IMG/VR virus record: IMGVR_UViG_3300045135_000898
Coordinates: 17,971 to 81,970 of that record
DNA length: 64,000 nt
Source of the DNA: a virus
Direction: 5' to 3' (one strand)
Below, piece after piece: positions 13,689-46,126 of the stretch (within the stretch, counting starts at the first letter, position 1; each line of letters opens with the position of its first letter). The notes under the pieces were generated by a model. The model saw only the letters and a program-made list of their open reading frames with translations, had not been told where the DNA came from and ran no database searches. The translations under genes and the position numbers were made by a program.

Positions 13689-14366
13689 TTATTTATCAGA
13701 TACTACCTGACTGGCATATGGGAAAATAGCCAAAATAGCCTCCGCTACAGCCTTAGCGACCTCGCGATGCTCCTTTTGAGTCTCTGGACCAGTTCGAAGC
13801 TCGATAAAGTGAATCCAGCTGCGTATAGAGCCTTGCATGTACATTCGCGATGGTGTTAGACCTTCGGGTAGCAGAGCTCGACGCTGTTCCTTGGCGATAC
13901 CAAGATTTGCCGCATTTGTGTATTCCTTTTTAACGAAACCAGCAACTCGCTGTTGGATTCTAAACCATTCTTCGTTAATTTTTTCGTCTTCTGTTGCATT
14001 TGAATTTTGACGGTTTTTATCGTCTTGAAGTCGAGCTTCACGGAACTCAAATTCAAATCCATCTTCCAATGGATCAGCATAACGCTGACTATATTCTTGG
14101 AAAGCAAACGATCGATGTCGAAGGATCTGACGAGCAATATCACGCGTCGTTTCAATCTCAATCGTAGCAGTAGCCATTTCAAATGGTGACCAATGCTTAT
14201 GTTTAATCAAGTAATTAAGAAGACGTTCTGTCGTCTCCATATTCATTTGGTTAGAAGGATTTGAAACACGGGCACAGTACGAAATAAGGTCTTGTACGTT
14301 CTCCATGTTCAGTTCTTCTTTAGCGCCTTCAGCGGGCTGAGTGTAACCAATTAGTCGTGCTTTCAT
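13689..14366 (-). CDS. thyX: FAD-dependent thymidylate synthase
   Basis: HWSPFE, RQILRHRSFAFQEYSQRY (RHRx7S), TQKEHR. Confidence 0.97.
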   Translation of the reverse strand: MKARLIGYTQPAEGAKEELNMENVQDLISYCARVSNPSNQMNMETTERLLNYLIKHKHWSPFEMATATIEIETTRDIARQILRHRSFAFQEYSQRYADPLEDGFEFEFREARLQDDKNRQNSNATEDEKINEEWFRIQQRVAGFVKKEYTNAANLGIAKEQRRALLPEGLTPSRMYMQGSIRSWIHFIELRTGPETQKEHREVAKAVAEAILAIFPYASQVVSDK

Positions 14367-17880: not shown

Positions 17881-17909
17881 ATTATATCAAAGATAATGAC
17901 CGATGTAAA
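17881..17909 (-). promoter_or_regulatory. early promoter
   Basis: TTTACA-17-TATAAT; -35 inside inverted repeat ATGACCGATGT/ACATCGGTCAT. Confidence 0.85.
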
Positions 17910-17929
17910 CAACTTTTTTCACATCGGTC

Positions 17930-18014
17930 ATAATGTTTCTTATTGTGTATAATGTATACTATACTGAACATTATTACATATTTTCGTCATAATGTTCACT
18001 ATTCTTAACATTAT
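17930..18014. repeat. five ATAATGT heptamers at ~19-21 bp spacing, mixed orientation
   Basis: 17930, 17949, 17968(rev), 17989, 18008(rev). Confidence 0.7.
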
Positions 18015-19219
18015 AAGAAGGCTTCGAGAGTATTCGTAGCAAGATTGCCAACATCAATCGATTGGCGGTGATTGTTCTGTTTAACGAAGTCAGTTTCAGT
18101 CATTGGTAGTTCACCGCGGACAAACTTAATTGCTTCTTCAACCATAGATGCAGCAGTGCATACAGGAACGTTCTGAGCAATCATATTCATTTTAGCCAAA
18201 CCCCCTTGAAGCTCAAAATCATGCGGGAATGCCATCATATGTAATGCTTCACGGATATTCAAAGAACGATCTTCTTCAGGGTGTACTGTGTCAGCGAGGT
18301 TACGACCAATAACAGCATTCATAGCATCGTCAAAAATATGCGTTGAGCTATCCCAAATTCCCATACCTTTACTGAACTTCATAATAGCATGGTCAGCAAG
18401 CTGTACACCTTTCGTATCACCGGTTTCAGCAAACCAATCTCGAGCTTCATTAAGCAAACCGGCGCGCTGAATAAACGAAAATGCAGTATTACGACCTGCA
18501 CCAATTACAACTTCACGAGCATCTTTACCAAACTTGTGTTCAATAAACTTGAAGTATGATTCACGAGTACCTACACGATCGTTGATAACAAGGTCTTGTT
18601 GAATTGCATTTTTAGGAATTTCACGAAGGTATTCTTTAAAGTTTTTGCGAGGTTCTTTATACCAATGCATAATTGGTGCTTTGCCGCCTTTCCAAAAAAT
18701 ATAGAAAGTACGATCACGATTTTGAGGTACACCATGAAGAGAAGTAGTTGTCTTGTACAGTGTCATGGCATAGCCGTTTTCACGAGCAATTTCAAGAAGC
18801 TTATCAGCAACAGGTTTACCTTTGTTCGTATAAAGCGCAGGGGCATTCTCTCCAATGATTACGTCAGCTTTAAACTTTTGCATACCATCGGTAGCCGATT
18901 GATACATCCATTTGTTTACTTCGGCATCAGCGCCTTTTGCTTCTTTACTCTTACCAGTATTAAGCTGAGATAGGCCTGCACAAGGCGGGGTTGCAACGAG
19001 AATGTTAACCTTTGGTAGACTTGGAGTTTCATCTATAGTAACATACTGTAGACCACTTCGTCCAAGGGTTTCCTTTTGATAGTTAACGTATTGCCCATCG
19101 TTTCCGGCAAAACCGTCGTAAGAATAAATGTTAGTAGGTGGTACGCCTGTGGCCTTTTCAGCGCCTAGAGGTAAACCGCCAATAAGTGGAATTAGCGGTG
19201 CCCATGTAATATCGTTCAT
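18011..19219 (-). CDS. DNA cytosine-C5 methyltransferase homolog with degenerate motif I
   Basis: PPCAGLS (IV), GENAP (VI), VPQNRDRTF (VIII), RSLNIREA (IX), AQNVPV (X); motif I reads IPLIGG. Confidence 0.85.
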   Translation of the reverse strand: MNDITWAPLIPLIGGLPLGAEKATGVPPTNIYSYDGFAGNDGQYVNYQKETLGRSGLQYVTIDETPSLPKVNILVATPPCAGLSQLNTGKSKEAKGADAEVNKWMYQSATDGMQKFKADVIIGENAPALYTNKGKPVADKLLEIARENGYAMTLYKTTTSLHGVPQNRDRTFYIFWKGGKAPIMHWYKEPRKNFKEYLREIPKNAIQQDLVINDRVGTRESYFKFIEHKFGKDAREVVIGAGRNTAFSFIQRAGLLNEARDWFAETGDTKGVQLADHAIMKFSKGMGIWDSSTHIFDDAMNAVIGRNLADTVHPEEDRSLNIREALHMMAFPHDFELQGGLAKMNMIAQNVPVCTAASMVEEAIKFVRGELPMTETDFVKQNNHRQSIDVGNLATNTLEAFL

Positions 19220-19225
19220 AATTAA

Positions 19226-20470
19226 TTATCCAAAAAAGTCAGTCAAGTCAAAAGTTTCAATTACTTTCTTTTCAAAGTTAGCAAGGACAGGTGGTTCATA
19301 ACCTTCAATCAATTCCTGCATAACGACTTGGTTAAGTTGAGTTCCATCGTAGTATTCTGGCTTGCAGAACATATCCTGTAATTCCTGAATAGCTGAATTA
19401 TATATCTTATCATCTGACAGTGCAGCTACTGCTTTAGCAAGATCAGCTGGAGTTTCAGGTCGTAACCATTTAGGTACTTTTAGATTATCCTGCTCATCAT
19501 ATGTCGGATGGAAGAAAGGAATAACTCCAGCATGGATCATTTCCACGTATTTTGAAGTAGTCCAGCCTTTAGCAATTGGGATGATAAATGTTGCCCTAAC
19601 CGACTTAAGCTTTTCTTGCAAATCTTCAAGGGCCATAGAACCTTTAAAGCGATCATCTTCCAACGTGGCTTCGTGATCCCATTTTCCGTAGATTTCGACG
19701 TCGTCGTTTCCATCAAGTACCCACTCCTTTAGCATTTTGTATCGTGACGGTGTACCTTCATTTAACACAACCATAAAGTCGGTTAAACGAGTAAAAGCCG
19801 GACCTGGGTAAGGAGCTTCAGGTTTACCTCGACCGTACAAAAAGATTTTTTCCATTTCAGCATACTTCGCAGGCACTTCAGTTTCAACACGAGTTTGATC
19901 TGCATAGCTACGAGATGCCGTACGTTTGTAGTTATATGTATATTGCGAAAGGCTAATCTTAGGATCAACAAAACAGTCTTTGCTTTGCGCAAGAGTGTAG
20001 CGTGGATCATTGCAGATTTCAATGACATTCATTTCTGGATTTTCATTTAGCCATTTCGTAATAGGCGTAGTGTAGTTACGAGTCATGTCAATAATCGCAA
20101 CAGTCTTACTAGGATCTCGTTGACCCCAAATGCGATCAGGTATTGATACATTACCAACCTGACCCATCATCATAATAAAGTGGTCAGGCTGAAATCCAAG
20201 ATCATCAAAGTACTTAATTACTCGGTCTTGGTCAGCTGGACCTTTATGTCCTTCAAATGCATCTTTTACATTATCGTAAGGAAACAGATCAATTCGCTGT
20301 TCTTCGGTAAGACGGTTGAAGTCAGATCTACCAATGATATGAAAAGTAATATCTGGATTATTATTGGCAAGAATTCGTAACATCGAAGGTGCTTCATTGT
20401 CCCCTCCGACTGGACTAAACGCTGTTACGAATTTAATTGACTTGCCAAGTTTTGCAAATGCTATATTCAT
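19226..20470 (-). CDS. GT-B DNA glycosyltransferase (beta-glucosyltransferase-like)
   Basis: MNIAFAKLGKSIKF N-terminus, NDPR, C-terminal TTSKYVEMIHAGVIPF GT-B motif; next to sugar enzymes and dCMP hydroxymethylase. Confidence 0.75.
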   Translation of the reverse strand: MNIAFAKLGKSIKFVTAFSPVGGDNEAPSMLRILANNNPDITFHIIGRSDFNRLTEEQRIDLFPYDNVKDAFEGHKGPADQDRVIKYFDDLGFQPDHFIMMMGQVGNVSIPDRIWGQRDPSKTVAIIDMTRNYTTPITKWLNENPEMNVIEICNDPRYTLAQSKDCFVDPKISLSQYTYNYKRTASRSYADQTRVETEVPAKYAEMEKIFLYGRGKPEAPYPGPAFTRLTDFMVVLNEGTPSRYKMLKEWVLDGNDDVEIYGKWDHEATLEDDRFKGSMALEDLQEKLKSVRATFIIPIAKGWTTSKYVEMIHAGVIPFFHPTYDEQDNLKVPKWLRPETPADLAKAVAALSDDKIYNSAIQELQDMFCKPEYYDGTQLNQVVMQELIEGYEPPVLANFEKKVIETFDLTDFFG

Positions 20471-20820
20471 TTATCTGCCCATTCTATAAATTGTGAAAGG
20501 TTCATCGCCTTATCGTCAACATAATAAGTAGATGAGTACGGTTTACCGAAGATAAGATTATCATACGGTACGTTGTAAGTATTTAGCCAGTCTTCTGTAA
20601 CAACAAGTACGTCATCTAAGATTTTATTAAGGTCTCCATTATGAGTCAGCATACGACGAGCTGAACTGATCGTGATATGGAAACCTTCATTCTTAAGTTT
20701 ATGCATTCTTTCAATAATTGCAGTATTAGGTCTTGCCAACCCATACTTACGATACGTGGATTTTTCAGAATGATTTGGAAAACAAATTGTATCGTCAAGA
20801 TCAAACACTATACTCTTCAC
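20467..20820 (-). CDS. HAD-family phosphatase (capless)
   Basis: FDLDDTI, SSAR, FGKP, YVDDKA. Confidence 0.9.
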   Translation of the reverse strand: MKSIVFDLDDTICFPNHSEKSTYRKYGLARPNTAIIERMHKLKNEGFHITISSARRMLTHNGDLNKILDDVLVVTEDWLNTYNVPYDNLIFGKPYSSTYYVDDKAMNLSQFIEWADK

Positions 20821-22294
20821 TAAGGTACTCCTCTACATAATATTTAAAGCGTGACTGACGTTCAGGGTCGTCGTAATGAAGTGGTATGCAAGTAGCAATC
20901 AATAAACAACCTGCATCAATGATTTCTTTAACTGGTAAGTTGTACTCTTTAAGCTTACGCACAAAGATGTCTTTAACATACTCGTTATGTTTAACGTTTG
21001 CAACCATTGCGCCGTAGCCATGATACAAGTCATGTGCTAGTTTTGCAAAATCATAAATATGATCGCCTTCAGTACCAACATATGATCCGTACGCTCCTCG
21101 TGGGTCAATCAGTTTAATTTGATTCGTTTGTTGGTTATAAAGAATGTTACCGAAATGAAGATCGCCGTGCATACCTGTAATAGGACGAGTAATGCGATAA
21201 GCTGCTTCACTAATTTTCAACAGCTTTTGGCGATCATTCTCAGTAAACTTAACGTTACGTAAACGCTTAGTCGTTTTCGTTACCCACATGTCTTCAGCTA
21301 ATTGGTCAAACTCTCGGATGAATACTTCGTCATCACAAAGTTCATTGAAGTAATTGAGTTTGATTTTAAATACTTTATCTATGATGTATTCCCATGCCGA
21401 CTCGCTAAGGTTTTCATATAACATTAAGTCAGAAAGAAGCGTACCACTCTCGTACGACATTACAAGATCATGTTTGGTTTCAAGTACGCGAGGAACGAAC
21501 ATTGATTGTTCAGGAGTAAGCATACGGTACCACTTTTTCTCGGTACGAATAGTTTCAACTGAAGTGGCATTATGATAGTCAGGTGACTTACGAACAGTGC
21601 CAAGATCAGGATCATACATCATATCATTGAACGCACGACTCTTCAAATTCAGTAATTTTGCGCATGTTTCATAATATGTAGGTAAATCGCCGATATCATA
21701 CCACTTATTGGTCAGAACACGCTCGTATTTGCCGTAAACTTCAAGGGCATGTGAAATATCGTATTGTTCCACAGTATTAAAGGCGTTTTGGGCAGAAATC
21801 CCATTTTTAAATGAATATAGGCCGACTAAAGCAACCGCATCAGATATCTTATTGGTTGGCTTATTATAATACGCTTCGCCATCCCACATACACCAAGCTG
21901 ATTGATTATCTACCTCTTTACATAAAAGGAAGTCAGAACCAAATGGCATATCTTCTTCAAGAATGATTGCGTCGCCTAACCAAACAACGACAGGTTTAGA
22001 TGGATCCTCAAGAGCATTCATACCGCGAGCAATCGCATCGCGTGGGCCATCATAATTAGGTTGGTTCGCGAACTTGACATCAGGGTGACGTCTGCTGCAG
22101 TATTCACGGATATCGTTAAACTTACCATCAACGATTACAATCTCGGCGATATCAGCAGTCTTACGAGCTTGTTCAATAATATAGTCAAGACACGGCTTAC
22201 CGTTAACGCGAACCATAACTTTGGAAGTGTTACTAGAAAGCGGACGCAGCCTAGTGGCAGCACCCGCAGCTGGTATGATTAAATTTACAGACAT
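20801..22294 (-). CDS. sugar-phosphate nucleotidyltransferase fused to APH/choline-kinase-like kinase
   Basis: IIPAAGAATRLRP...SKVMV..NGKP, WLGD, WYDIG; C-terminal HGDLHFGNI, LIDPRG, YDFAKL. Confidence 0.9.
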   Translation of the reverse strand: MSVNLIIPAAGAATRLRPLSSNTSKVMVRVNGKPCLDYIIEQARKTADIAEIVIVDGKFNDIREYCSRRHPDVKFANQPNYDGPRDAIARGMNALEDPSKPVVVWLGDAIILEEDMPFGSDFLLCKEVDNQSAWCMWDGEAYYNKPTNKISDAVALVGLYSFKNGISAQNAFNTVEQYDISHALEVYGKYERVLTNKWYDIGDLPTYYETCAKLLNLKSRAFNDMMYDPDLGTVRKSPDYHNATSVETIRTEKKWYRMLTPEQSMFVPRVLETKHDLVMSYESGTLLSDLMLYENLSESAWEYIIDKVFKIKLNYFNELCDDEVFIREFDQLAEDMWVTKTTKRLRNVKFTENDRQKLLKISEAAYRITRPITGMHGDLHFGNILYNQQTNQIKLIDPRGAYGSYVGTEGDHIYDFAKLAHDLYHGYGAMVANVKHNEYVKDIFVRKLKEYNLPVKEIIDAGCLLIATCIPLHYDDPERQSRFKYYVEEYLSEEYSV

Positions 22295-22320: not shown

Positions 22321-22349
22321 ATTATACACTATGTATGCCTAAATGTAAA
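22321..22349 (-). promoter_or_regulatory. early promoter for the sugar/GT/MTase operon
   Basis: TTTACA-17-TATAAT. Confidence 0.85.
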
Positions 22350-22352
22350 TAG

Positions 22353-22814
22353 CTAAAAGTGATTTAATTCAACAACTTCAAAATCAATGCCAACTTCATT
22401 GAACATTGCTTTGGTATCCTCAAACGATACTTTCCACTTAACTCCCATTTTATCAAACGATAAAGGAAGCCCAATTACAACTCGCTTAGTTCCTACTTGG
22501 ATAAGTCCCTTTGCGCATTCAGAGCAAACAGGTAATCCATAAACGTAAACAGTCGAGCCGTCAAGACTTACGCCGTTATATGTAGCATTATAGATGACAT
22601 TCTTTTCAGCGTGTACGACATATGTGTATTTCTCTTCACGATTATTTAGCCTTTCAGAAGAATCATCAATACCACGAGGAAATCCGTTATAGCCTTGCGA
22701 AAGAATTCGTTTATTATCGTCTACAGCAATGGCGCCGATTTTAGCTGATGGGTCTTTTGACCACATCGCCACTTCTTTAGCCATTGCCATAAAGCGTTCA
22801 TCCCATTTATTCAT
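22353..22814 (-). CDS. cd: dCMP deaminase
   Basis: SKDPSAKIGA, GYNG, HAEKN, PVCSECAK. Confidence 0.92.
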   Translation of the reverse strand: MNKWDERFMAMAKEVAMWSKDPSAKIGAIAVDDNKRILSQGYNGFPRGIDDSSERLNNREEKYTYVVHAEKNVIYNATYNGVSLDGSTVYVYGLPVCSECAKGLIQVGTKRVVIGLPLSFDKMGVKWKVSFEDTKAMFNEVGIDFEVVELNHF

Positions 22815-23500
22815 TAGTCCCACAACGCCTCATAATATTTACCAAACAATCGGAAACCGTTACTGATGCGTTCTTGATATGCTTTACGACCTTCCATGTC
22901 AATTTCGAATGTATGGTTAGGTCCGTGTTTCATTTCAAAGTATTGAGCGTCTTCTTTAGCCACTTCATAACCGTCTTCATCGACAGGTGAAAAATAAACG
23001 TCATGTTCACCGCTACAGAATTGATCTTCCCAATCATCATTAAGTTTCGATTCAAAGGCAAAGATCATTTCGCCCATTACCCATTCCCAACGCTTAAAGA
23101 ATTTGTCATCAGTGGTACCATCTTTCTGGTATGCAGTCTCTTCAACCGATGTTGCCCATAGTTCTTCAGGCACATCTTCAGAGTCAACCTGTGGTGCTCC
23201 ATGTTTAGTCTCTTTAAGTTGCTTCAACATTGGCACCATAATATGTGCTAACGTATGGTCCATGCTCCAAGTATCCCACGGATCAAGTTTTACTTTAATC
23301 TTCTGCTCACGTTTATCCAAGAAGTAATTAATTGGACTATAAAGATTTTGTAAGATATCATCAAACTTATCAAGGAAGCGTTCAAACTTCGTCTGCTTGC
23401 TTTCGCTAGGCCAATGACTAAAGCCATACTTCTTAGTCATATAGTCAGCGTATATTGTTGCTCGTAAACGACTTGGATATGGGCCAATACGTACTTTCAT
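22814..23500 (-). CDS. conserved hypothetical protein
   Basis: WDTWSMDHTLA...GFRLFGKYYEALWD. Confidence 0.75.
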   Translation of the reverse strand: MKVRIGPYPSRLRATIYADYMTKKYGFSHWPSESKQTKFERFLDKFDDILQNLYSPINYFLDKREQKIKVKLDPWDTWSMDHTLAHIMVPMLKQLKETKHGAPQVDSEDVPEELWATSVEETAYQKDGTTDDKFFKRWEWVMGEMIFAFESKLNDDWEDQFCSGEHDVYFSPVDEDGYEVAKEDAQYFEMKHGPNHTFEIDMEGRKAYQERISNGFRLFGKYYEALWD

Positions 23501-23501
23501 A

Positions 23502-24191
23502 TTACTCTCCTAGAAGATGGAAGTGGCGACTATACACATGTAAATTCTGAACTTGCCAATGGATATCACCTGATGATAACAAAGGACCAAAAGTATCTTC
23601 TGCAAAGCTAGCATTGTAATTACTCACCATTAAGTCAAGTAAGTAGCGTTGCCAAGCGTAATCATTTTTGTAACCAAAGATTACATCGTTTGATCGCATC
23701 TGAACTACACAGTGCATTTTACCGTTGCGGATGTAGTATGTAACAGAGTTAGTACAAATGAAGTCAGATTTACCGTTTTCATTATACTCAGTCCAAATTG
23801 ATGGGCGAGTGTAAATCATCGAGGCGCGACGAGAATCAGGATTATTGATTAACTCATACAATGCTTTTTCAAACTGATTAAAGTACTTATTTGAAAACAC
23901 AAGAGTACCGTAGTTTGAATTAATGTTGCCATGATGATCGCCTGTCATTTTCCATGCAGCAGGAGGTTCTTTTTGTCCATGATAAATGTCGTTGATGTTA
24001 GTCGACATTGAGAGATACCAATCAATTTCAGAAGCAACGTACTCTTCATTCACTGTACCAAAGATGGATGGTTCGTCAGCTAGGAAAGATGCACCAAGCA
24101 TTTCGATAGTCTTACCACCGTTACGATCTTGTGTAAAACGCTCAGCCGCAAGTTCAGCTTTAAAATATTCGCGGATGTCTTGTACATTCAT
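23502..24191 (-). CDS. 42: dCMP hydroxymethylase (gp42-like)
   Basis: INSNYG, DFICTN, MRSNDVIFGYKNDYAW (Asp specificity residue as in T4 gp42), LHVYSRHF; ThyX encoded separately. Confidence 0.88.
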   Translation of the reverse strand: MNVQDIREYFKAELAAERFTQDRNGGKTIEMLGASFLADEPSIFGTVNEEYVASEIDWYLSMSTNINDIYHGQKEPPAAWKMTGDHHGNINSNYGTLVFSNKYFNQFEKALYELINNPDSRRASMIYTRPSIWTEYNENGKSDFICTNSVTYYIRNGKMHCVVQMRSNDVIFGYKNDYAWQRYLLDLMVSNYNASFAEDTFGPLLSSGDIHWQVQNLHVYSRHFHLLGE

Positions 24192-24195
24192 AATA

Positions 24196-24378
24196 TTACT
24201 CTTCCTCTTCAATTACAAGATTGCCTGGGATATGATATCCGCATGCTCGTAAGAATTCAGCATATGCTTCTAACATATGATCAAGATTTGCTTCATCAGC
24301 CAATTCCATTTTTACAGAATTCACTGCAGTATACGGAGAATGCATTTCTGGTCTTTTGTAAATTAGTTTAAATGGCAT
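24196..24378 (-). CDS. hypothetical protein
   Basis: ORF in operon, FLRACGY motif. Confidence 0.65.
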   Translation of the reverse strand: MPFKLIYKRPEMHSPYTAVNSVKMELADEANLDHMLEAYAEFLRACGYHIPGNLVIEEEE

Positions 24379-24689
24379 TACATATCTCCGTAAAAACGAT
24401 CGTCTTGTTCAGGGCCTTCGAGAGTCTGGATTTTAAGGATCATAAGCTGAGTGATGGCATGATCAAGATGAGGTAAGCCAGATTCTGGATCATTGTCTTC
24501 ACCAGCCCAGAATGCATTAAGATGACGCTGTGCCGATGAGTAAGTACGGCCAAATGAAGTATTGCCAACATCGTGGCGCCAATTGTTTTCACCGTACTTT
24601 TCAGCGCCAAATCCTAGAACGCGGGCTACTGCCATGATACATTCTGCAGGGATTAGGTGAATAGGCGCTTTGCCGTTATCATATTTCAT
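24378..24689 (-). CDS. dATP/dGTP diphosphohydrolase-family protein (DUF5664-like)
   Basis: KYDNGK..HLIP, FGAEKYG.NNW, RHL.AFW.GED.DPESGLPHLDHA. Confidence 0.85.
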   Translation of the reverse strand: MKYDNGKAPIHLIPAECIMAVARVLGFGAEKYGENNWRHDVGNTSFGRTYSSAQRHLNAFWAGEDNDPESGLPHLDHAITQLMILKIQTLEGPEQDDRFYGDM

Positions 24690-24961: not shown

Positions 24962-25888
24962 TTACTGATTTTTATATGCGTATTCTATCGCGCGGTCGGC
25001 TTCCAACTCAAGTGGTCGGTTTTCGTACCAATTACCAGTTTCCATATCTATTTCACGGGCAAGTTGAGCGATTTCTCGAGATGTAATTGGATAACCTGCA
25101 TCGATAGCTTTATAAGCAATTGATACCATCATCTTGTACATTCCGTGATACCAACCAGTGTCAGTGATATTACGATATGAATCAACGGCTACCTTAGATA
25201 CAAACGGGCAATCATGATATGACTTCCAAGAAAACTTTGTATTTTCCATTGAGTCTTTACGATGCTGCACAATCATTTGTTGCATAGAGTCAGGTAGTCG
25301 TTCAAAGAATGATTTGCCGCTTTTCTTTATCTCTATCGGATGCTTAGCAATAAGAGCATCAGGGTCAATATAAGACCCAGAATTGACGAAGATAAAATTG
25401 TTAGCACCATCATAATTCGCAGGCGTGTAGTACATTCGGCTAAGGTCTTTAGTTTGTCGATCTCCAACTGAGTCAAGCTCAGTGTTGAGAGCGTACCAAA
25501 ACTGTTTGATTCGATCCGCCTTAACAGCTCCTTTAAGTGGAAAGACGAGTCTAAACTTCGGATGATCGACAGTACTGCTAGCAGTGCTATAACAAACGTA
25601 ATACCAATCACCATACCTAGTACGTAATTCATTTTCTAGATCTCCTTCAAATACGTGTTCGTCTACGTCGACTGCAGCCCAACGACCCCACTCGGTAACA
25701 TTTCTGTTAGCACGAGTGGTACCGTCTTCGTAAACTGCTGGAGAGATGAGTTCAGCATCTTTCTTGTCTTTAATATCACGCTTAGACAATTTGAACAACA
25801 AGGCTTCAAATTCTTCCCAAGATTGGAAGGACATGTTCTTGTTAGTCTTGTTATCATAGATGCTTTTAAAGACAGTCAAAGAGTACAT
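24962..25888 (-). CDS. AEP-superfamily primase-polymerase-like protein
   Basis: AAVDVD (DxD), YSTASS..PKFRLVFP, D.QTKDLSRMYY.P; PriCT-like C-terminus. Confidence 0.75.
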   Translation of the reverse strand: MYSLTVFKSIYDNKTNKNMSFQSWEEFEALLFKLSKRDIKDKKDAELISPAVYEDGTTRANRNVTEWGRWAAVDVDEHVFEGDLENELRTRYGDWYYVCYSTASSTVDHPKFRLVFPLKGAVKADRIKQFWYALNTELDSVGDRQTKDLSRMYYTPANYDGANNFIFVNSGSYIDPDALIAKHPIEIKKSGKSFFERLPDSMQQMIVQHRKDSMENTKFSWKSYHDCPFVSKVAVDSYRNITDTGWYHGMYKMMVSIAYKAIDAGYPITSREIAQLAREIDMETGNWYENRPLELEADRAIEYAYKNQ

Positions 25889-26289
25889 TACAGGTCTCCG
25901 TGATTTCCTTCATGCGATGGCGCCTGCCATCCTTCAGGTTTAACAAGATCAGGCAGACCAAATGGATTTGGGCGACCTTCTTTAACACCAACGTTTTTAG
26001 ATAGGTTAGCATGTAGGACTTCATCCCATGCTTGATTTGCATCAACGCCAAATACGTTGAGCGTGCCAATTGCAAATACGCAAAGGTCAATCAAACCATC
26101 AACGATTTCTTCAGGGTCTCCTGCGTCAACCGCATCGTAAGTTTCGTATAGTTCTTCTTTACACATATCGATACGGAAACGAAGATACTTGGCCATCATT
26201 TCATGGTCATCTTTGTTTGCCTCAAACCAATCATGTACGCCAAACTTGACGTGCATATTGTCGATATCTTTTACCCAGTTATTAGACAT
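25888..26289 (-). CDS. MazG/HisE-like NTP pyrophosphohydrolase
   Basis: EELYE...EEIVDGLIDL, V.HANLSK, DLVKPEGW..P. Confidence 0.85.
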   Translation of the reverse strand: MSNNWVKDIDNMHVKFGVHDWFEANKDDHEMMAKYLRFRIDMCKEELYETYDAVDAGDPEEIVDGLIDLCVFAIGTLNVFGVDANQAWDEVLHANLSKNVGVKEGRPNPFGLPDLVKPEGWQAPSHEGNHGDL

Positions 26290-28537: not shown

Positions 28538-28794
28538 TTGTACTCGTCCGGTATCAAGTCCGACCATTTCATCAACTTCTGTTTCTTCGCATCCGCGCAT
28601 TCTGTTAGTTCCTCTTCTGTAATATAACCATGCTCAATGAATAAGGCGAGCATACACGCGACGTCGCCTAATTCTTGTTTAAGATTTTCTTCGCTATCAG
28701 GAGAAAGGCCAAACCGTTTGATCTTAGACATAATCATAATAAGTTCAGCGCATTCTTCTCCAGTGACAGTGAATAGTTCGTCTTCTAAGTTCAC
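28534..28794 (-). CDS. MazG-like pyrophosphohydrolase
   Basis: EECAELI...QELGDV. Confidence 0.75.
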   Translation of the reverse strand: MNLEDELFTVTGEECAELIMIMSKIKRFGLSPDSEENLKQELGDVACMLALFIEHGYITEEELTECADAKKQKLMKWSDLIPDEYK

Positions 28795-31322
28795 CCAAAG
28801 AAATCCTCGAGGCTAACAACCTCTTCTGATGTCCAACCGATTGCATCAAGAATTGGTGTAACCGCATCTAGGAATGTTTTGTTGAACATTGTTTCGTAAT
28901 CGATGTACTTATGTAATTGCATTTCAACTGGAAGATAATCAGGAAACGAAATAACATTTTCACGAATAGGATTAGGTTTACGCAAGTAACAGAACTTGAC
29001 TTTATCGCCATTCTGAATCTTTTCGTATGCTTTAAGACCTTTATCCTCAAGCGTGTTATTGTACATCAGTGCGCCACGAACATGAATAGGAGTACCTTTC
29101 TTGTACACCGTTTTATTGTCGCGCCACTTGATTACATCGGATACCCCACGAGGAAATGATACGTCCTCAGGCGGCAACGTAGTAAAGTGATCTTTAAATT
29201 GCTGGATTGCTTTTTGAGTGTTAGACTCTGAACCTGTCATAATTACTTTGAACATATTCTTCATAGCAGAACGACATACTTCAGGAGTACTTGACTTAAT
29301 AGCCTCGATACCCATGATCTTAAGTTTAGGTTCTTTGTACTCAACGCCTTCAGAGTTATGTACATTAAGAATATAACGTTTCTTAGCAGTCCATACACCT
29401 TTATCTGCAATGACCTCACGTTCCATAACCATCTTCTGAGCATACGAATTCATATGTACAGCAAGTTCGTCGTAAGACTTTGCGATCATTGGTTCAAATT
29501 GGTCAGAGACCATCTTATCAACCAAATCAACTACTTCTTTGATTGGTTTTTTGTCGAAGCCAAGCTTTTTAACCAAAGGACCAAAGTTAACGTAGTTAGA
29601 GTCAGTATCAATAGCGATGACATAATCAAATTTGTTTGTACCACATATCTTGTTCATAAAACCGTTAAACGAGTGTTCAGCCCAACGAATAGCAAGCTGA
29701 CCTGTAAGCGTAATACCTTCGGCGACACGAAGATCGTAATAACGGAACCAACGGTTACCCATCGCACCATATAATGAGTTCATCAAGATCTTGGCAGCCA
29801 TTTGTTGGTTATCCAAAGTTGCTACTTGTTTTTCCAACTTATAAACTTCAATCTTGTTTGACTTATCAACGTTCACCAATTCTTGTTGAGCAGCTAGCAT
29901 CTTTTTCTTAGTTGCTTTACGCTCAGCATAAATGGTTTCGATGATTCCTGGAATAACTCCTTGCTTGTCTTTGCGATACAGTGTACCGTTAGCTGCCATA
30001 GCATATTCGTCAGGTCTAGGATTACTAGGATTAGTGCGAGTAAGACAGTTATCAACATTAACGCCTGGGACTACGTCATTTACGATAGTTTCAGGAGACA
30101 TGTTACATTGCATAATGATGTGTGGGTATAGTGAGTTCAAGTCGAACGAAACTACCCAGTCATGCATACCAACTTGTGGAGCTTTAACGTAACCACCTGC
30201 AAAGTCAGACTTCATCTTGTCTTCGTTAGGAGGTACGACTACACCTTTATCATGTAGGTCACGGTATAGAATAGAATCCCAAATCGCGGTTGTACCTAAT
30301 GTGTCACCATAATTGACACCACCGCGGTACGCAAGTGTCATAGCTAAGTTAATCAGACCAAGCTTGTCATCAAGTCGGTAAACAATGCCAACGTCTTTGA
30401 TGTTATAGTCACCAAACTTTTGAGGATCCTTTTCATATAGATCCTGGAGGTCTTTGTACTCTTCGTAAGACAATTTCTTTTCACCAAGTTCGACGTGTGC
30501 GATGTGGTCAAGCTTGTACGATTCCTGAGCCGTGTAAGTAAACTTTTTGTAAAGTTCAATGTAGTCAAGTTCAGTTACACCAAGGATTTCGTAAAACATT
30601 TGTTCACGACCATTTACCTTAATGTTGCGTTGATTGACCTTACCCCAAGGAGATAACTTCTGAGCAAAGTCTTCACCTAGCAAACGGAGGATACGATTAA
30701 TGACATACGGCGTATCGAAGAAACGACAGTTCCAGCCTGAAATGATATCAGGCGTATTAACCGGAGATGACCACCAACCTACGAATGCTGAAAGCAAGTT
30801 AGCTTCAGTTTCGCAATAAAAGTATTCAACATCCATACCTTCAAGATCAAGCTCAGTCTTAGACTTATCCCATTCTTTTAAGTACCAAAGGTAATACTTG
30901 TTTTCTTGGTTATTGCGGTATGCGATAGCGTTGATAGGGTTAAGAGCTTCAGATGGATCAGAGTAACCATCTTCAGTTTTCATAACCTCGATATCGTAAA
31001 AGCCAACGTTCACGGTGTCAGGATCAAACTCGATATGACCTGGGAAACGTTCTTGTAGATGCTGAACAACATAGTTGGTGTTACCGTACACCTTGAAGTT
31101 AGGCATATCTTTGTAACGCTCGATGAAGTCTTTAGCTTCACGCATGTCATCCAATTGGATAGACGAAACCCTTACGCCGTCAAGCGCAAAGGTTTCCGAT
31201 TTTGGATCCGGCACGAATAGTGTCGGTTTGAAACGAACCTTCTCATGGACCCGATGGCCATTCTTATAGCCGCGGTAAAGAAGGTTGTTTCCATAACGTA
31301 TAACTGATGTGTAAAATTCCAA
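28791..31322 (-). CDS. 43: DNA polymerase gp43 (family B)
   Basis: DIE exo I, SFDLNSLYP, KILMNSLYG, IDTDS; C-terminal SLEDFFG; TTG start after GGAGG. Confidence 0.98.
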   Translation of the reverse strand: MEFYTSVIRYGNNLLYRGYKNGHRVHEKVRFKPTLFVPDPKSETFALDGVRVSSIQLDDMREAKDFIERYKDMPNFKVYGNTNYVVQHLQERFPGHIEFDPDTVNVGFYDIEVMKTEDGYSDPSEALNPINAIAYRNNQENKYYLWYLKEWDKSKTELDLEGMDVEYFYCETEANLLSAFVGWWSSPVNTPDIISGWNCRFFDTPYVINRILRLLGEDFAQKLSPWGKVNQRNIKVNGREQMFYEILGVTELDYIELYKKFTYTAQESYKLDHIAHVELGEKKLSYEEYKDLQDLYEKDPQKFGDYNIKDVGIVYRLDDKLGLINLAMTLAYRGGVNYGDTLGTTAIWDSILYRDLHDKGVVVPPNEDKMKSDFAGGYVKAPQVGMHDWVVSFDLNSLYPHIIMQCNMSPETIVNDVVPGVNVDNCLTRTNPSNPRPDEYAMAANGTLYRKDKQGVIPGIIETIYAERKATKKKMLAAQQELVNVDKSNKIEVYKLEKQVATLDNQQMAAKILMNSLYGAMGNRWFRYYDLRVAEGITLTGQLAIRWAEHSFNGFMNKICGTNKFDYVIAIDTDSNYVNFGPLVKKLGFDKKPIKEVVDLVDKMVSDQFEPMIAKSYDELAVHMNSYAQKMVMEREVIADKGVWTAKKRYILNVHNSEGVEYKEPKLKIMGIEAIKSSTPEVCRSAMKNMFKVIMTGSESNTQKAIQQFKDHFTTLPPEDVSFPRGVSDVIKWRDNKTVYKKGTPIHVRGALMYNNTLEDKGLKAYEKIQNGDKVKFCYLRKPNPIRENVISFPDYLPVEMQLHKYIDYETMFNKTFLDAVTPILDAIGWTSEEVVSLEDFFG

Positions 31323-44478: not shown

Positions 44479-45539
44479 TATGCAATCTCCATATTTGACG
44501 CTTCAGTAAATAACGTACGCATTAGTACTTTCATCTTATCTTTATCAAGGTCAGTCTCAACAGCCTCAACGTAAGAATCAAGCAACGATGGCGTATCCTC
44601 TACCGAGATACTTTCATCTTCAACGTTTTCGCCCAAGAACTCAGAAAAAGTTTCAGCAATTTTCAATTCATGAGTATCAACATTTTGTAAGCGGTCAATA
44701 AACTTATCAAAAGAATACGGATCCGACTTCTTAACAACAACCACCTTAACGAATTTGTCTTTAACTGATTCAACGTCGTATGTACTATAATCGTTTTCTT
44801 CGTCGTTGTAAACAATCTTTTCAAACATAGTGATTGGATTGCGTACAGGAGTCAATTCACGTGTTTCAGTATCAAAAACATGGAAGTACTTAGGGTCGTC
44901 AGCATCAGCCCAGGTAAATTCCATTTGAGATCCAAGGTAGCGAATGTTGCCTTCTTCAGATGCAGTGTGGAAATGACCTGACCAAACATGCTCAAATCTT
45001 GATAGTACGCTTGCATCCATGCCGTGCATGTTCTTAACGCCTTTCATAAGATCAAACCCAGCAAGCTCAAAGTGGCCACCAAGAATTGACGCCTTACAGT
45101 TTTTAAGGAACTTCATGGAGTCGGTATAGTTCTCATTATTGATCCAAGGAATAAGAGCAATTGAACAACCATCGTAATCCATTACTCGTGGTTCCATAAT
45201 AATGTTAACATTGCCTGTGTAATAACCAAGTAGCTCTTTAAGCGAACATAAATCATTAGTGTTTTTGTAAAATACGTCATGGTTACCTGGGATAATATCC
45301 ATGGTAATACCTTCACGTTTTAGTACGTCAAGAAACACTTTACGGTTATGGTTCAATGCTTTAAAGTTTACATATTTACGATGTTCATAATAATCGCCCA
45401 GGTGGATAATGGTTTTGATACCATGTTCCTTTAGGTATGGAAAGAAGACATCCGAATAAAACGCCTCCTGATAGTTCATAAACACTTCAGAGCTGTTACG
45501 TGCTCCACAGTGAGTATCATTCAAAATCGCAATTTTCAT
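44478..45539 (-). CDS. 47: recombination nuclease subunit gp47 (Mre11-like)
   Basis: DTHCG, HLGD, GNHD, SGHFH. Confidence 0.97.
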   Translation of the reverse strand: MKIAILNDTHCGARNSSEVFMNYQEAFYSDVFFPYLKEHGIKTIIHLGDYYEHRKYVNFKALNHNRKVFLDVLKREGITMDIIPGNHDVFYKNTNDLCSLKELLGYYTGNVNIIMEPRVMDYDGCSIALIPWINNENYTDSMKFLKNCKASILGGHFELAGFDLMKGVKNMHGMDASVLSRFEHVWSGHFHTASEEGNIRYLGSQMEFTWADADDPKYFHVFDTETRELTPVRNPITMFEKIVYNDEENDYSTYDVESVKDKFVKVVVVKKSDPYSFDKFIDRLQNVDTHELKIAETFSEFLGENVEDESISVEDTPSLLDSYVEAVETDLDKDKMKVLMRTLFTEASNMEIA

Positions 45540-46126
45540 TAACCAAGTTCTCCAAAGAACAACTCAAGACCTTCTGGGTTGCTCTTATCTTCTTTCTTTT
45601 CGTATTTAGCGAATTCTTTAATTACACGGTCTTGGTCGTGTACTCGTTCAATGCGTGATCTCAATTCATCGACAAATGCGTATTCATCACCTGCTTCATA
45701 TCCATTTTCATCTTGGACTGTAAAGAAGTCTTCGTATCCACCTTTCTCAATGAATTTAAATTTTACGTCCTGCTGTTTCTTTTCCTTTTGGATTCGACGT
45801 AAGAACGCGTAATATGAGATCTGCGTAAAATACGCAAATGCATTTGGTAGACCAGTACGAGTTGCCTTCTCAATGTCATAGTTCATGATTGCCTTAAGAC
45901 TATTTTCAACAGCATCCATCACCATCTCTTCACGGTATGTGTACCTAATGAAGTTAGACTTGTATGATAGACCTTCTGCAATCTTAAGAAAACACTCAGC
46001 TATGTAATCTGGAATGATAGGAACAACTTCGTCTTTATCTTTAGCTTCGTTGACTGACTTGACGTAATCGCAAACTGCCAATGAGAACTCTTTATTGTTG
46101 ACGTAATGTGGTTTATCTTTTGCCAT
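45539..46126 (-). CDS. 55: late sigma factor gp55
   Basis: HYVNNKEF, KIAEGLS.K.NF..YTYREEM..DA.E, NAFAYFTQI.YYAF.RRI.KEK. Confidence 0.96.
   Translation of the reverse strand: MAKDKPHYVNNKEFSLAVCDYVKSVNEAKDKDEVVPIIPDYIAECFLKIAEGLSYKSNFIRYTYREEMVMDAVENSLKAIMNYDIEKATRTGLPNAFAYFTQISYYAFLRRIQKEKKQQDVKFKFIEKGGYEDFFTVQDENGYEAGDEYAFVDELRSRIERVHDQDRVIKEFAKYEKKEDKSNPEGLELFFGELG

Follow-up and report, generated by a model that had tools for sequence, protein, structure and literature searches.

A viral family of C5-methyltransferase-fold proteins with a rebuilt cofactor pocket, encoded beside hydroxymethylcytosine synthesis and DNA glycosyltransferase genes

The gene described here, which lies in a viral genome fragment, encodes a protein with the fold of a cytosine C5 DNA methyltransferase in which the residues for covalent catalysis are intact and those that would contact S-adenosylmethionine (SAM) are altered, and the same combination is fixed among relatives that accompany genes for hydroxymethylcytosine (hmC) synthesis and DNA glycosylation. 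We analysed 64,000 nucleotides of IMG/VR virus record IMGVR_UViG_3300045135_000898 (positions 17,971 to 81,970, hereafter the window), which come from a marine, T4-like and, by our reading of the gene content, hmC-building phage. The gene itself, open reading frame (ORF) 18011-19219 on the minus strand, encodes a 402-residue protein (P0001), and its boundaries are those given in an earlier note on this DNA. Taken together, the results suggest that this methyltransferase-like (MT-like) enzyme probably performs an as yet undescribed DNA modification step. Our leading interpretation, held tentatively and with somewhat less than even confidence, is that it would be tethered to the sliding clamp, attack C6 of hmC after replication and alter the 5-hydroxymethyl group without methyl transfer from SAM.

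The MT-like ORF encodes a genuine PF00145 homolog with the C5 DNA methyltransferase fold. The family profile matched with 68.8 bits against a cut-off of 22 (E 7.3e-19), and PHROG 116, 'DNA methyltransferase', matched at 9.8e-22. Matches to solved structures were weak (top single-sequence match M.HaeIII, E 0.0012; top profile match 1.3e-07), the TIGR00675 dcm model of NCBIfam reached 48.5 bits, under its cut-off of 100.65 bits, and an ESM Atlas search with PF00145 clusters excluded gave a top score of 0.88, without a model behind it, and was uninformative. The PF00145 alignment spans profile positions 50-321 of 324 and leaves positions 1-49 unmatched, so that the motif I/II portion of the model finds no match in the protein.

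Motifs were mapped by residue-level alignments to M.HaeIII, plant DNMT1-type chains, 3g7u, CmoX (8yf3), E. coli Dcm and a canonical phage methyltransferase, and all reference alignments gave one mapping, with I10 on the Phe and L12 on the first Gly of motif I, and A348-Q349 on the Gly-Asn of motif X. The earlier note had described cofactor motifs I and X as non-canonical and catalytic motifs IV, VI, VIII and IX as intact, and translation and alignments bore this out. On the catalytic side, the protein has the Pro-Cys, the Glu of ENV, the QxRxR and the motif IX that belong to PF00145 and EC 2.1.1.37: motif IV reads PPC (residues 78-80, 18980-18988, minus strand as for all motifs), with Cys80 at the position of the catalytic nucleophile; motif VI reads Glu124-Asn-Ala (residues 124-126, 18842-18850; canonical ENV); motif VIII reads QNRDR (residues 166-170, 18710-18724), that is Gln166-x-Arg168-x-Arg170; and motif IX reads RSLNIRE (residues 318-324, 18248-18268). 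On the SAM side, none of the three features of EC 2.1.1.37 was found. The motif I position, canonically FxGxGG, reads IPLIGG (residues 10-15, 19175-19192); the motif X position, canonically GN(A/S)V, reads AQNV (residues 348-351, 18167-18178); and the ribose-binding Glu of motif II has as its counterpart either Ser33 (19121-19123), in the alignment to 3g7u, or a gap, in the hhalign alignment with Dcm. Motif II is, on these alignments, a further deviation that can be added to the list of the earlier note. The retained Cys80, Glu124 and Arg168/Arg170 suggest that the enzyme can flip a cytosine-type base and attack its C6.

Relatives of the protein numbered 516 at E <= 0.001 among 3278 candidates at 90% clustering, and PF00145 was carried by all 120 of them among the matches listed. 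When the 50%-identity representatives were searched exhaustively, 1095 matched at E <= 0.001, of which 507 reach 1e-10 and 309 reach 1e-30, the last figure being the size of the family in clusters at 50% identity. Conservation was counted in 151 sequences, the query and the best 150 representatives at 50% identity, which extend down to 32% identity. Position 10, canonically Phe, was Phe in none of 135 sequences (Ile 64, Val 39, Gln 20, Met 8) and lacks aromatic residues altogether, and position 12, the canonical first Gly, was Leu in 133/135 and never Gly (0/135), followed by an invariant Gly-Gly at positions 14 and 15 (135/135 each). The motif II position, 33, was Ser in 118 and Thr in 11 of 139 sequences. 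At the motif X position, the canonical Gly at 348 was found in 11 of 149 sequences, and 349, canonically Asn, was Gln in 145/149 (Lys 3, Arg 1, Asn 0), with Asn at position 350 in 143/149. The catalytic Cys at position 80 was invariant (140/140), with Pro (80/140) or Cys (58/140) at position 78; so were Glu at 124 (149/149) and Arg at 168 and 170 (150/150 each), while position 126, the Val of ENV, was Ala in 148/149. Motif IX kept Arg at 318 in 146 of 148 sequences and Glu at 324 in 145 of 149, and Asn40 and Asp/Glu41 were also conserved across the aligned family. The SAM contact motifs are thus altered, all four by our count, and fixed over this range of relatives, in favour of the interpretation given above. 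Because the pocket is uniform across the family and the residues for covalent catalysis are invariant, the pocket appears rebuilt and under selection, not decaying, and on this alignment the motif deviations are family-defining.

These counts bear directly on the simplest alternative, an ordinary SAM-dependent, sequence-specific 5-methylcytosine (5mC) methyltransferase with a diverged SAM site, which would act on residual cytosine or on host or early DNA. Membership of PF00145, the complete set of catalytic motifs and the retained Gly-Gly of motif I all agree with such an enzyme, and annotators name these proteins cytosine methylases. Nevertheless, we consider it unlikely, since Phe10, the first Gly, the motif X Asn and any acidic motif II residue are missing from the family, the first 49 positions of PF00145 are unmatched and the score falls under the dcm family cut-off.

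Four relatives (P0170, P0138, P0144 and P0195) are longer, with 598-1462 residues and Lys/Glu-rich C-terminal extensions of chromatin-protein type. P0170 has a zf-CXXC domain and P0138 a C2H2-like finger; all four stand on short single-gene contigs without taxonomy, look eukaryotic and keep the PLIGG and QNVP pocket. Comparison of the C-terminal extensions with all locus ORFs by blastp gave no additional domain, and glycosyltransferase matches in them were rejected as the artefact of a single run-through ORF in one locus (L003).

The earlier note had supposed that C5 of cytosine is probably already occupied in this phage, and the premise proved well founded. A thymidylate synthase (TS) homolog encoded at 23502-24212 (minus strand; motifs SDFIC and MRSNDVIFGYKNDYAWQ) matched T4 deoxycytidylate (dCMP) hydroxymethylase, the gp42 enzyme, with E 5.1e-69 (T4 structure 1b49), against about 1e-06 for E. 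coli ThyA. It has Asp at the positions of ThyA L143 and N177 and keeps Asp169, as in the T4-type hmC pathway enzyme. The residues at these positions tell dCMP hydroxymethylases apart from thymidylate synthases and also from 5-hydroxy-dCMP synthases with their Asn169 (PMC13326640), and the homolog is therefore of the hmC type and not of the 5-hydroxycytosine type. The window also encodes ThyX (13689-14366, minus strand; PF02511, 6.9e-40), which makes the supply of dTMP independent of the gp42-type enzyme, and two MazG-type NTP pyrophosphatases are found, with ThyX, near the TS homolog. In MetaGPA, contigs that had been selected for modified cytosine were reported to carry TS homologs along with PRA-PH pyrophosphatases and dCMP deaminases (PMC8670742). 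The presence of hmC in the DNA of this phage can be strongly inferred from its gene content.

Co-occurrence of the homologs with gp42 and with glycosyltransferases, a check proposed in the earlier note, was assessed in 80 viral loci with close family members, 80 + 80 loci with two distant subfamilies (some of them repeats) and 6 loci from cellular bins. We clustered 4035 ORFs of 235 loci, in which 239 MT-like ORFs fell into 88 groups at 90% identity. The neighbouring TS homologs (n = 99, one cluster) carried the gp42 signature in 95 cases, an ordinary ThyA signature in 4 and the 5-hydroxycytosine signature in none. A 5-hydroxycytosine pathway was ruled out, with Asn at the Asp169 position in 0/99 of these homologs. 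Flanks of 8 kb or more on either side were available for 36 representatives, and 23 of these had a TS homolog in view. For 11 of the 13 without one, the whole record was searched, with a TS-family match in 5 and the gp42 signature in 4; the six records without a TS-family match were 9-25% complete. The gp42-signature homolog was present in both near-complete jumbo records (2/2), in all 15 further records of 105-293 kb and in 6/6 records at least 90% complete, the two jumbo records included. The family occurs in three cultured lineages. The complete gp42 signature is present in Pseudoalteromonas phage vB_Psh_XG4 (XG4) and in Bacillus phage G; gp076 of cyanophage S-TIM5 (L083:5715-6551), annotated as a thymidylate synthase, combines Asp at the N177 position and Asp169 with a Cys, in place of Asp/Glu or Leu, at the L143 position. 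S-TIM5 gp076 appears to be of the dCMP type, with a methyl or a hydroxymethyl group as candidate product. Counting S-TIM5 despite its Cys, a gp42-type enzyme was found in 20/20 large or cultured records checked. Its presence in all 20 informative records argues for dependence of the MT-like enzyme on the gp42 product, as carriers without gp42 would otherwise be expected, and it leaves little free C5 for an ordinary methylase.

Some hmC modules contain, between the dCMP deaminase and the sugar genes, a 119-residue member of the uracil-DNA glycosylase superfamily (PF03167, 4.4e-05; L027:1813-2172 and 11 further ORFs of the cluster).

The MT-like family is almost purely viral, and its carriers are myoviruses and jumbo phages that are widespread in the sea and in fresh water. 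Searches with two peptide patterns, which are not exhaustive, of the genomes of 185,579 species (one each) gave 6 family loci, all of them on contigs of metagenome-assembled genomes; a TS-homolog match lay within the 8-kb flanks in 4 of the six, with the gp42 signature in 3 (L097, L098, L100). This small number of loci in cellular bins also argues against an ordinary methylase, as does the lack of any restriction partner noted beside family members, unlike the canonical phage methylase used as reference, which adjoins a restriction endonuclease. Among 50,697 cultured phage records 9 matched, one of the nine being a canonical methylase, and one distant subfamily alone counts more than 590 viral contigs.

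A very distant member is gp301 of Bacillus phage G (L280:2755-4035; 22% identity), which shows AFIFGG, CPCSGLS, ENAP and AQGVP and in which the Gln of motif VIII has become Met. An alpha-glucosyltransferase is encoded 3 kb away, and the phage encodes a second TS homolog, L285, that bears the gp42 signature.

Genes for glycosyltransferases (GTs) also accompany the family. In the close family, a BGT-like GT homolog was found by tblastn upstream of the MT-like gene, mostly directly, in 76/81 loci, and the same loci, many of which are incomplete, held a HAD protein in 54, a deaminase in 39, a transferase/kinase in 38 and a TS homolog in 34. Within 8 kb of the 88 MT-like representatives the commonest neighbours were gp42-like TS (52), BGT-like GT (37) and dCMP deaminase (35). 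In the distant subfamilies this place, immediately upstream or nearby, was taken by AGT (T4 alpha-GT homolog, PF11440), TAGT (TET-associated GT, PF20691), Glyco_trans_1_2 or GT4, and in total DNA GTs of at least 5 different families adjoin MT-like family members. The sugar-nucleotide genes vary likewise (epimerase/dehydratase, UDP-galactopyranose mutase, cytidylyltransferase, HAD-kinase fusion). A recognised DNA GT lay at most 5 kb away in at least 53/88 representatives, and a GT or a sugar-nucleotide gene was present in at least 71/88, both figures being lower bounds with about 40 clusters annotated. The partner GT changes while the MT-like gene stays. An hmC carbamoyltransferase was ruled out as a partner: PF16861 occurred in 1/50 records, there far from the MT-like gene.

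Such tight pairing with GTs of several unrelated families, together with the loss of the donor pocket and a C-terminal tail common to the MT-like protein and the GT (see below), would also fit a non-catalytic protein that flips or reads hmC and either presents bases to the GT or marks replicated DNA. We judge this improbable: invariance of Cys80, Glu124, Arg168 and Arg170 in 140-150 sequences each would be unusual without catalysis, and to our knowledge the T4 GTs need no helper.

Between motifs VIII and IX lies a region (18284-18694, minus strand) that occupies the position of a target-recognition domain and showed few conserved columns in 119 sequences. Two full-length tandem MT-like paralogs were present in four loci (L078:10001-12426, L108:9968-12404, L109:9962-12378 and L182:6843-9253), where they have catalytic and pocket residues in common and differ in the VIII-IX region. 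In both respects the region behaves like target-recognition domains, which suggests a sequence-context preference of the MT-like enzyme.

The protein ends in NTLEAFL (18014-18034, minus strand), a tail resembling those of DNA polymerases; the GT encoded next to it ends in DLTDFFG and the gp43-like polymerase of the window in SLEDFFG. A simple tail pattern was present in 41/88 dereplicated MT representatives and 102/162 GT homologs, against 290/3634 other ORFs. In T4 the polymerase attaches to the sliding clamp by its C-terminal tail. A contact with the gp45 clamp is also described for alpha-GT of T4 (PMC13216743), and with the polymerase-like tails this makes it reasonable to suppose that both the GT and the MT-like enzyme would be tethered to the clamp. 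A proposed pairing of LF-ending tails with PolIII-type replicases was not borne out, since 8 MT tails in PolIII loci end otherwise. In ORF 45539-46126 a stretch LELFFG, six residues short of the end, resembles the tails found in the polymerase, GT and MT-like protein.

A clamp-type tail, a rebuilt donor pocket and intact carbanion-forming residues would also suit a C5 transferase that acts on residual cytosine in DNA with a donor other than SAM, for example by hydroxymethyl transfer from methylene-tetrahydrofolate, and mops up behind the replisome for full glycosylation. Its hmC product would feed the adjacent GT, the zf-CXXC fusions point to unmodified cytosine, and M.HhaI makes hmC from cytosine and formaldehyde in vitro (PMC7176277). 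We rate this somewhat below the ordinary methylase. Against it, carriers with a GT but without gp42 would be expected, in contrast to the 20 records with a gp42-type enzyme, and a variable recognition region is a poor fit to general mopping up.

Turning back to our leading interpretation, the gp42 ortholog would make hydroxymethyl-dCMP and the hmC DNA would be glycosylated, so that hmC in newly replicated DNA, or its glycoside, is the proposed substrate. The C-terminal tail would hold the MT-like enzyme on the sliding clamp, the base would be flipped and Cys80 would add to C6. The enamine would then eject the oxygen substituent of the 5-CH2 group to give an exocyclic methylene, to which a nucleophile would add, followed by elimination of Cys80. 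The product would be a 5-(X-methyl)cytosine, and the variable region would determine the sequence contexts in which it forms. Cytosine would then be modified in two ways, by this reaction and by glycosylation, which is comparable to the work of the two transferases of T4. In this scheme we infer the substrate (hmC), SAM independence, attachment to the clamp, the chemistry of the substitution and the nature of X. A wider reading, that this would be the first natural family dedicated to SAM-independent C5-methyltransferase chemistry, a replisome-tethered, Cys-dependent conversion of hmC into a new 5-(X-methyl)cytosine, with that base present in thousands of abundant aquatic phages and with offshoots in eukaryote-like chromatin proteins, seems to us, taken as a whole, possible and rather doubtful.

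Several observations weigh against hmC as the substrate of a SAM-independent enzyme. Complete replacement of cytosine by hmC would be an extrapolation from gene content, and the clustered loci held no constant neighbouring gene that might supply the nucleophile. That Leu12 would block SAM is an argument from alignment alone, and an adenosine site of another kind could be built from the motif I Gly-Gly, Asn40 and Asp/Glu41. Ordinary sequence-specific, and indeed multi-specific, methylases have similar variable regions and tandem paralogs. The zf-CXXC domain binds unmodified CpG and the pocket is kept in the zf-CXXC fusions, which hints at unmodified cytosine or CpG as the target, and at a universal donor, in that branch; these fusions count in favour of an ordinary methylase as well. 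Finally, T-even phages combine hmC with glucosylation without such an enzyme, none of them being among the nine matches in the cultured phage records.

In the window, the MT-like gene is the fourth of a block of minus-strand genes that are joined by mutual overlaps or 6-nt gaps. The first encodes a fusion of a sugar-1-phosphate nucleotidyltransferase and an APH-type kinase (20801-22294; PF00483, 5.1e-14; PF01636, 1.7e-06), for which every NCBIfam nucleotidyltransferase match was under its cut-off. The second encodes a small HAD phosphatase (20467-20820), assigned from PNKP-type HAD matches and from TIGR01689, capsule biosynthesis phosphatase (7.1e-24, below cut-off). The third encodes a 414-residue protein (19226-20470) without a Pfam match, whose ESM Atlas model aligned with PF09198 (T4 beta-glucosyltransferase), Glyco_trans_1_2 and other GT-B clusters at TM 0.59-0.64, and which is predicted on this structural match to be a GT-B glycosyltransferase of T4 beta-glucosyltransferase type. 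A promoter-like site, TTTACA-17-TATAAT with 11/12 matches, precedes the block (22321-22349, minus strand) and was the best of the region in a consensus scan that gave 34 such sites against 22.6 +/- 4.8 in shuffles, a modest excess and weak evidence alone. A terminator-like hairpin with a 14-bp stem lies 3' of the MT-like stop codon (17896-17931, minus strand); terminator-like sites showed no excess in the scan (4 against 4.8 +/- 1.9). This layout fits the description of the MT-like gene, in the earlier note, as the last of a sugar/GT operon. The spacer after the gene (17930-18010) contains a short AACATTATGAC-like word, repeated several times and followed by the hairpin and the next promoter-like site.

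The block is part of a longer minus-strand series, which runs from the gp43-like family B DNA polymerase (28791-31322; PF00136, 3.7e-31) through DNA ligase, a MazG/PRA-PH-type pyrophosphohydrolase (25888-26289; PF01503, 1.7e-10), a PF18909 protein (24378-24689; 1e-29), the TS homolog, a 228-residue protein and dCMP deaminase (22353-22823; PF00383, 4.9e-21; phrog_174, 8e-43) to the four genes, with UvsX, a gp41-like helicase and ThyX beyond them in the direction of transcription. The PF18909 protein is an all-alpha, dNTP diphosphohydrolase-like protein of 103 residues that stands alone, adjoins the gp42 ortholog and matches the N-terminal domain of dATP/dGTP diphosphohydrolases; it may be the dCTP-clearing enzyme of this lineage, with the MazG/PRA-PH protein as a second candidate dCTPase. 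The 228-residue protein (22814-23500, minus strand; phrog_11543, no Pfam match) lies between the hydroxymethylase and the deaminase, overlaps the start of the latter and has homologs in just 3 of the clustered loci.

If the enzyme does act on hmC, it would reveal a cytosine hypermodification not yet described and would extend one of the best-studied enzyme folds to a new class of reaction. A natural enzyme that derivatises 5hmC at specific sites would, moreover, be a direct tool for 5hmC mapping, for which engineered methyltransferases are now used (PMC7176277). If it is an ordinary methylase instead, these phages leave part of their cytosine unsubstituted, which would also be new information on their DNA.

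Compared with canonical C5-methyltransferases (M.HaeIII, M.HhaI, E. coli Dcm; PF00145), the MT-like family has in common the fold, Pro-Cys, Glu-Asn, Gln-x-Arg-x-Arg, motif IX and the variable VIII-IX region. It differs in having PLxGG for FxGxGG, no motif II Glu and x-Gln-Asn for Gly-Asn-Ala/Ser, and in being almost restricted to viruses and tied to hmC synthesis and DNA glycosylation, not to restriction enzymes. The proposed chemistry has its model in the atypical SAM-independent reactions of M.HhaI and M.SssI: C5-methyltransferases deprived of SAM remove the hydroxymethyl group from 5hmC or condense it with thiols in vitro (PMC7176277; PMC11347137). There, however, these are artificial side reactions of SAM-dependent enzymes, and the literature searched described no natural enzyme dedicated to them. 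Full-text literature searches, whose reach excludes supplementary domain lists, gave no paper on this MT-like family. A preprint on viral DNA GTs names methyltransferases near thymidylate-synthase-linked GT-B enzymes, with no follow-up (bioRxiv 10.1101/2023.12.21.572611), and the word 'methyltransferase' occurs 0 times in the main text of MetaGPA, among whose 110 associated domains PF00145 may be included (PMC8670742).

In T4, two post-replicative enzymes, alpha-GT and beta-GT, share the hmC of one genome, with alpha-GT on the gp45 clamp (PMC13216743). The pair described here, a GT and an MT-like protein, is encoded in one operon and both members have a polymerase-like tail, and the second enzyme has a methyltransferase fold, not that of a GT.

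CmoX, a phage DNA cytosine C5-carboxymethyltransferase (PDB 8yf3), is likewise a phage C5-methyltransferase homolog with another residue for the motif X Asn, and there the change alters the group put on C5, which serves as a handle for hypermodification (PMC12783734). Its Arg350, at the position of M.HhaI Asn304, touches the transferred carboxymethyl group of carboxy-SAM (Cx-SAM) (PMC12783734), and Gln349 of the MT-like protein would therefore stand where a 5-substituent, such as the 5-CH2OH of hmC, would point. The changed motif X residue and the possibility that a host CmoA supplies the donor, as in E. coli (PMC12783734), could point to a carboxymethyltransferase that uses carboxy-SAM. Such an enzyme is very improbable here, and we rejected this route. 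The defining Arg is Gln (Arg in 1/149 sequences), the residue before PPC in the window protein is Thr (TPPC), unlike the SPPC of CmoX, and the adenosine contacts that CmoX keeps (Phe25, Phe48, Glu47 and Asp69; PMC12783734) are lost. CmoX is further accompanied by CmoA and an amide ligase, whereas CmoA (TIGR00740) was found in 0/17 large records, in 0/6 at 90% completeness or more and not in the record of the window itself (45% complete), and no amide ligase was seen among annotated neighbours.

Phage clusters of a methyltransferase (MT), TET (5mYOX) and GT also place a gene of the C5-methyltransferase fold beside DNA GTs, partly of the same families, namely TAGT and BGT-like (PMC8256090; bioRxiv 10.1101/2023.12.21.572611). 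No TET/JBP match (PF12851) was obtained in 17 records or in the record of the window, in a search whose control was silent in every genome, and a route to hmC by methylation and subsequent TET oxidation is accordingly rejected only weakly. In the MT/TET/GT clusters the methyltransferase is described as making 5mC from SAM, which TET then oxidises to hmC on DNA, whereas here hmC would be made before replication by gp42. Among the systems compared, CmoX and these MT/TET/GT clusters are the nearest that have been described.

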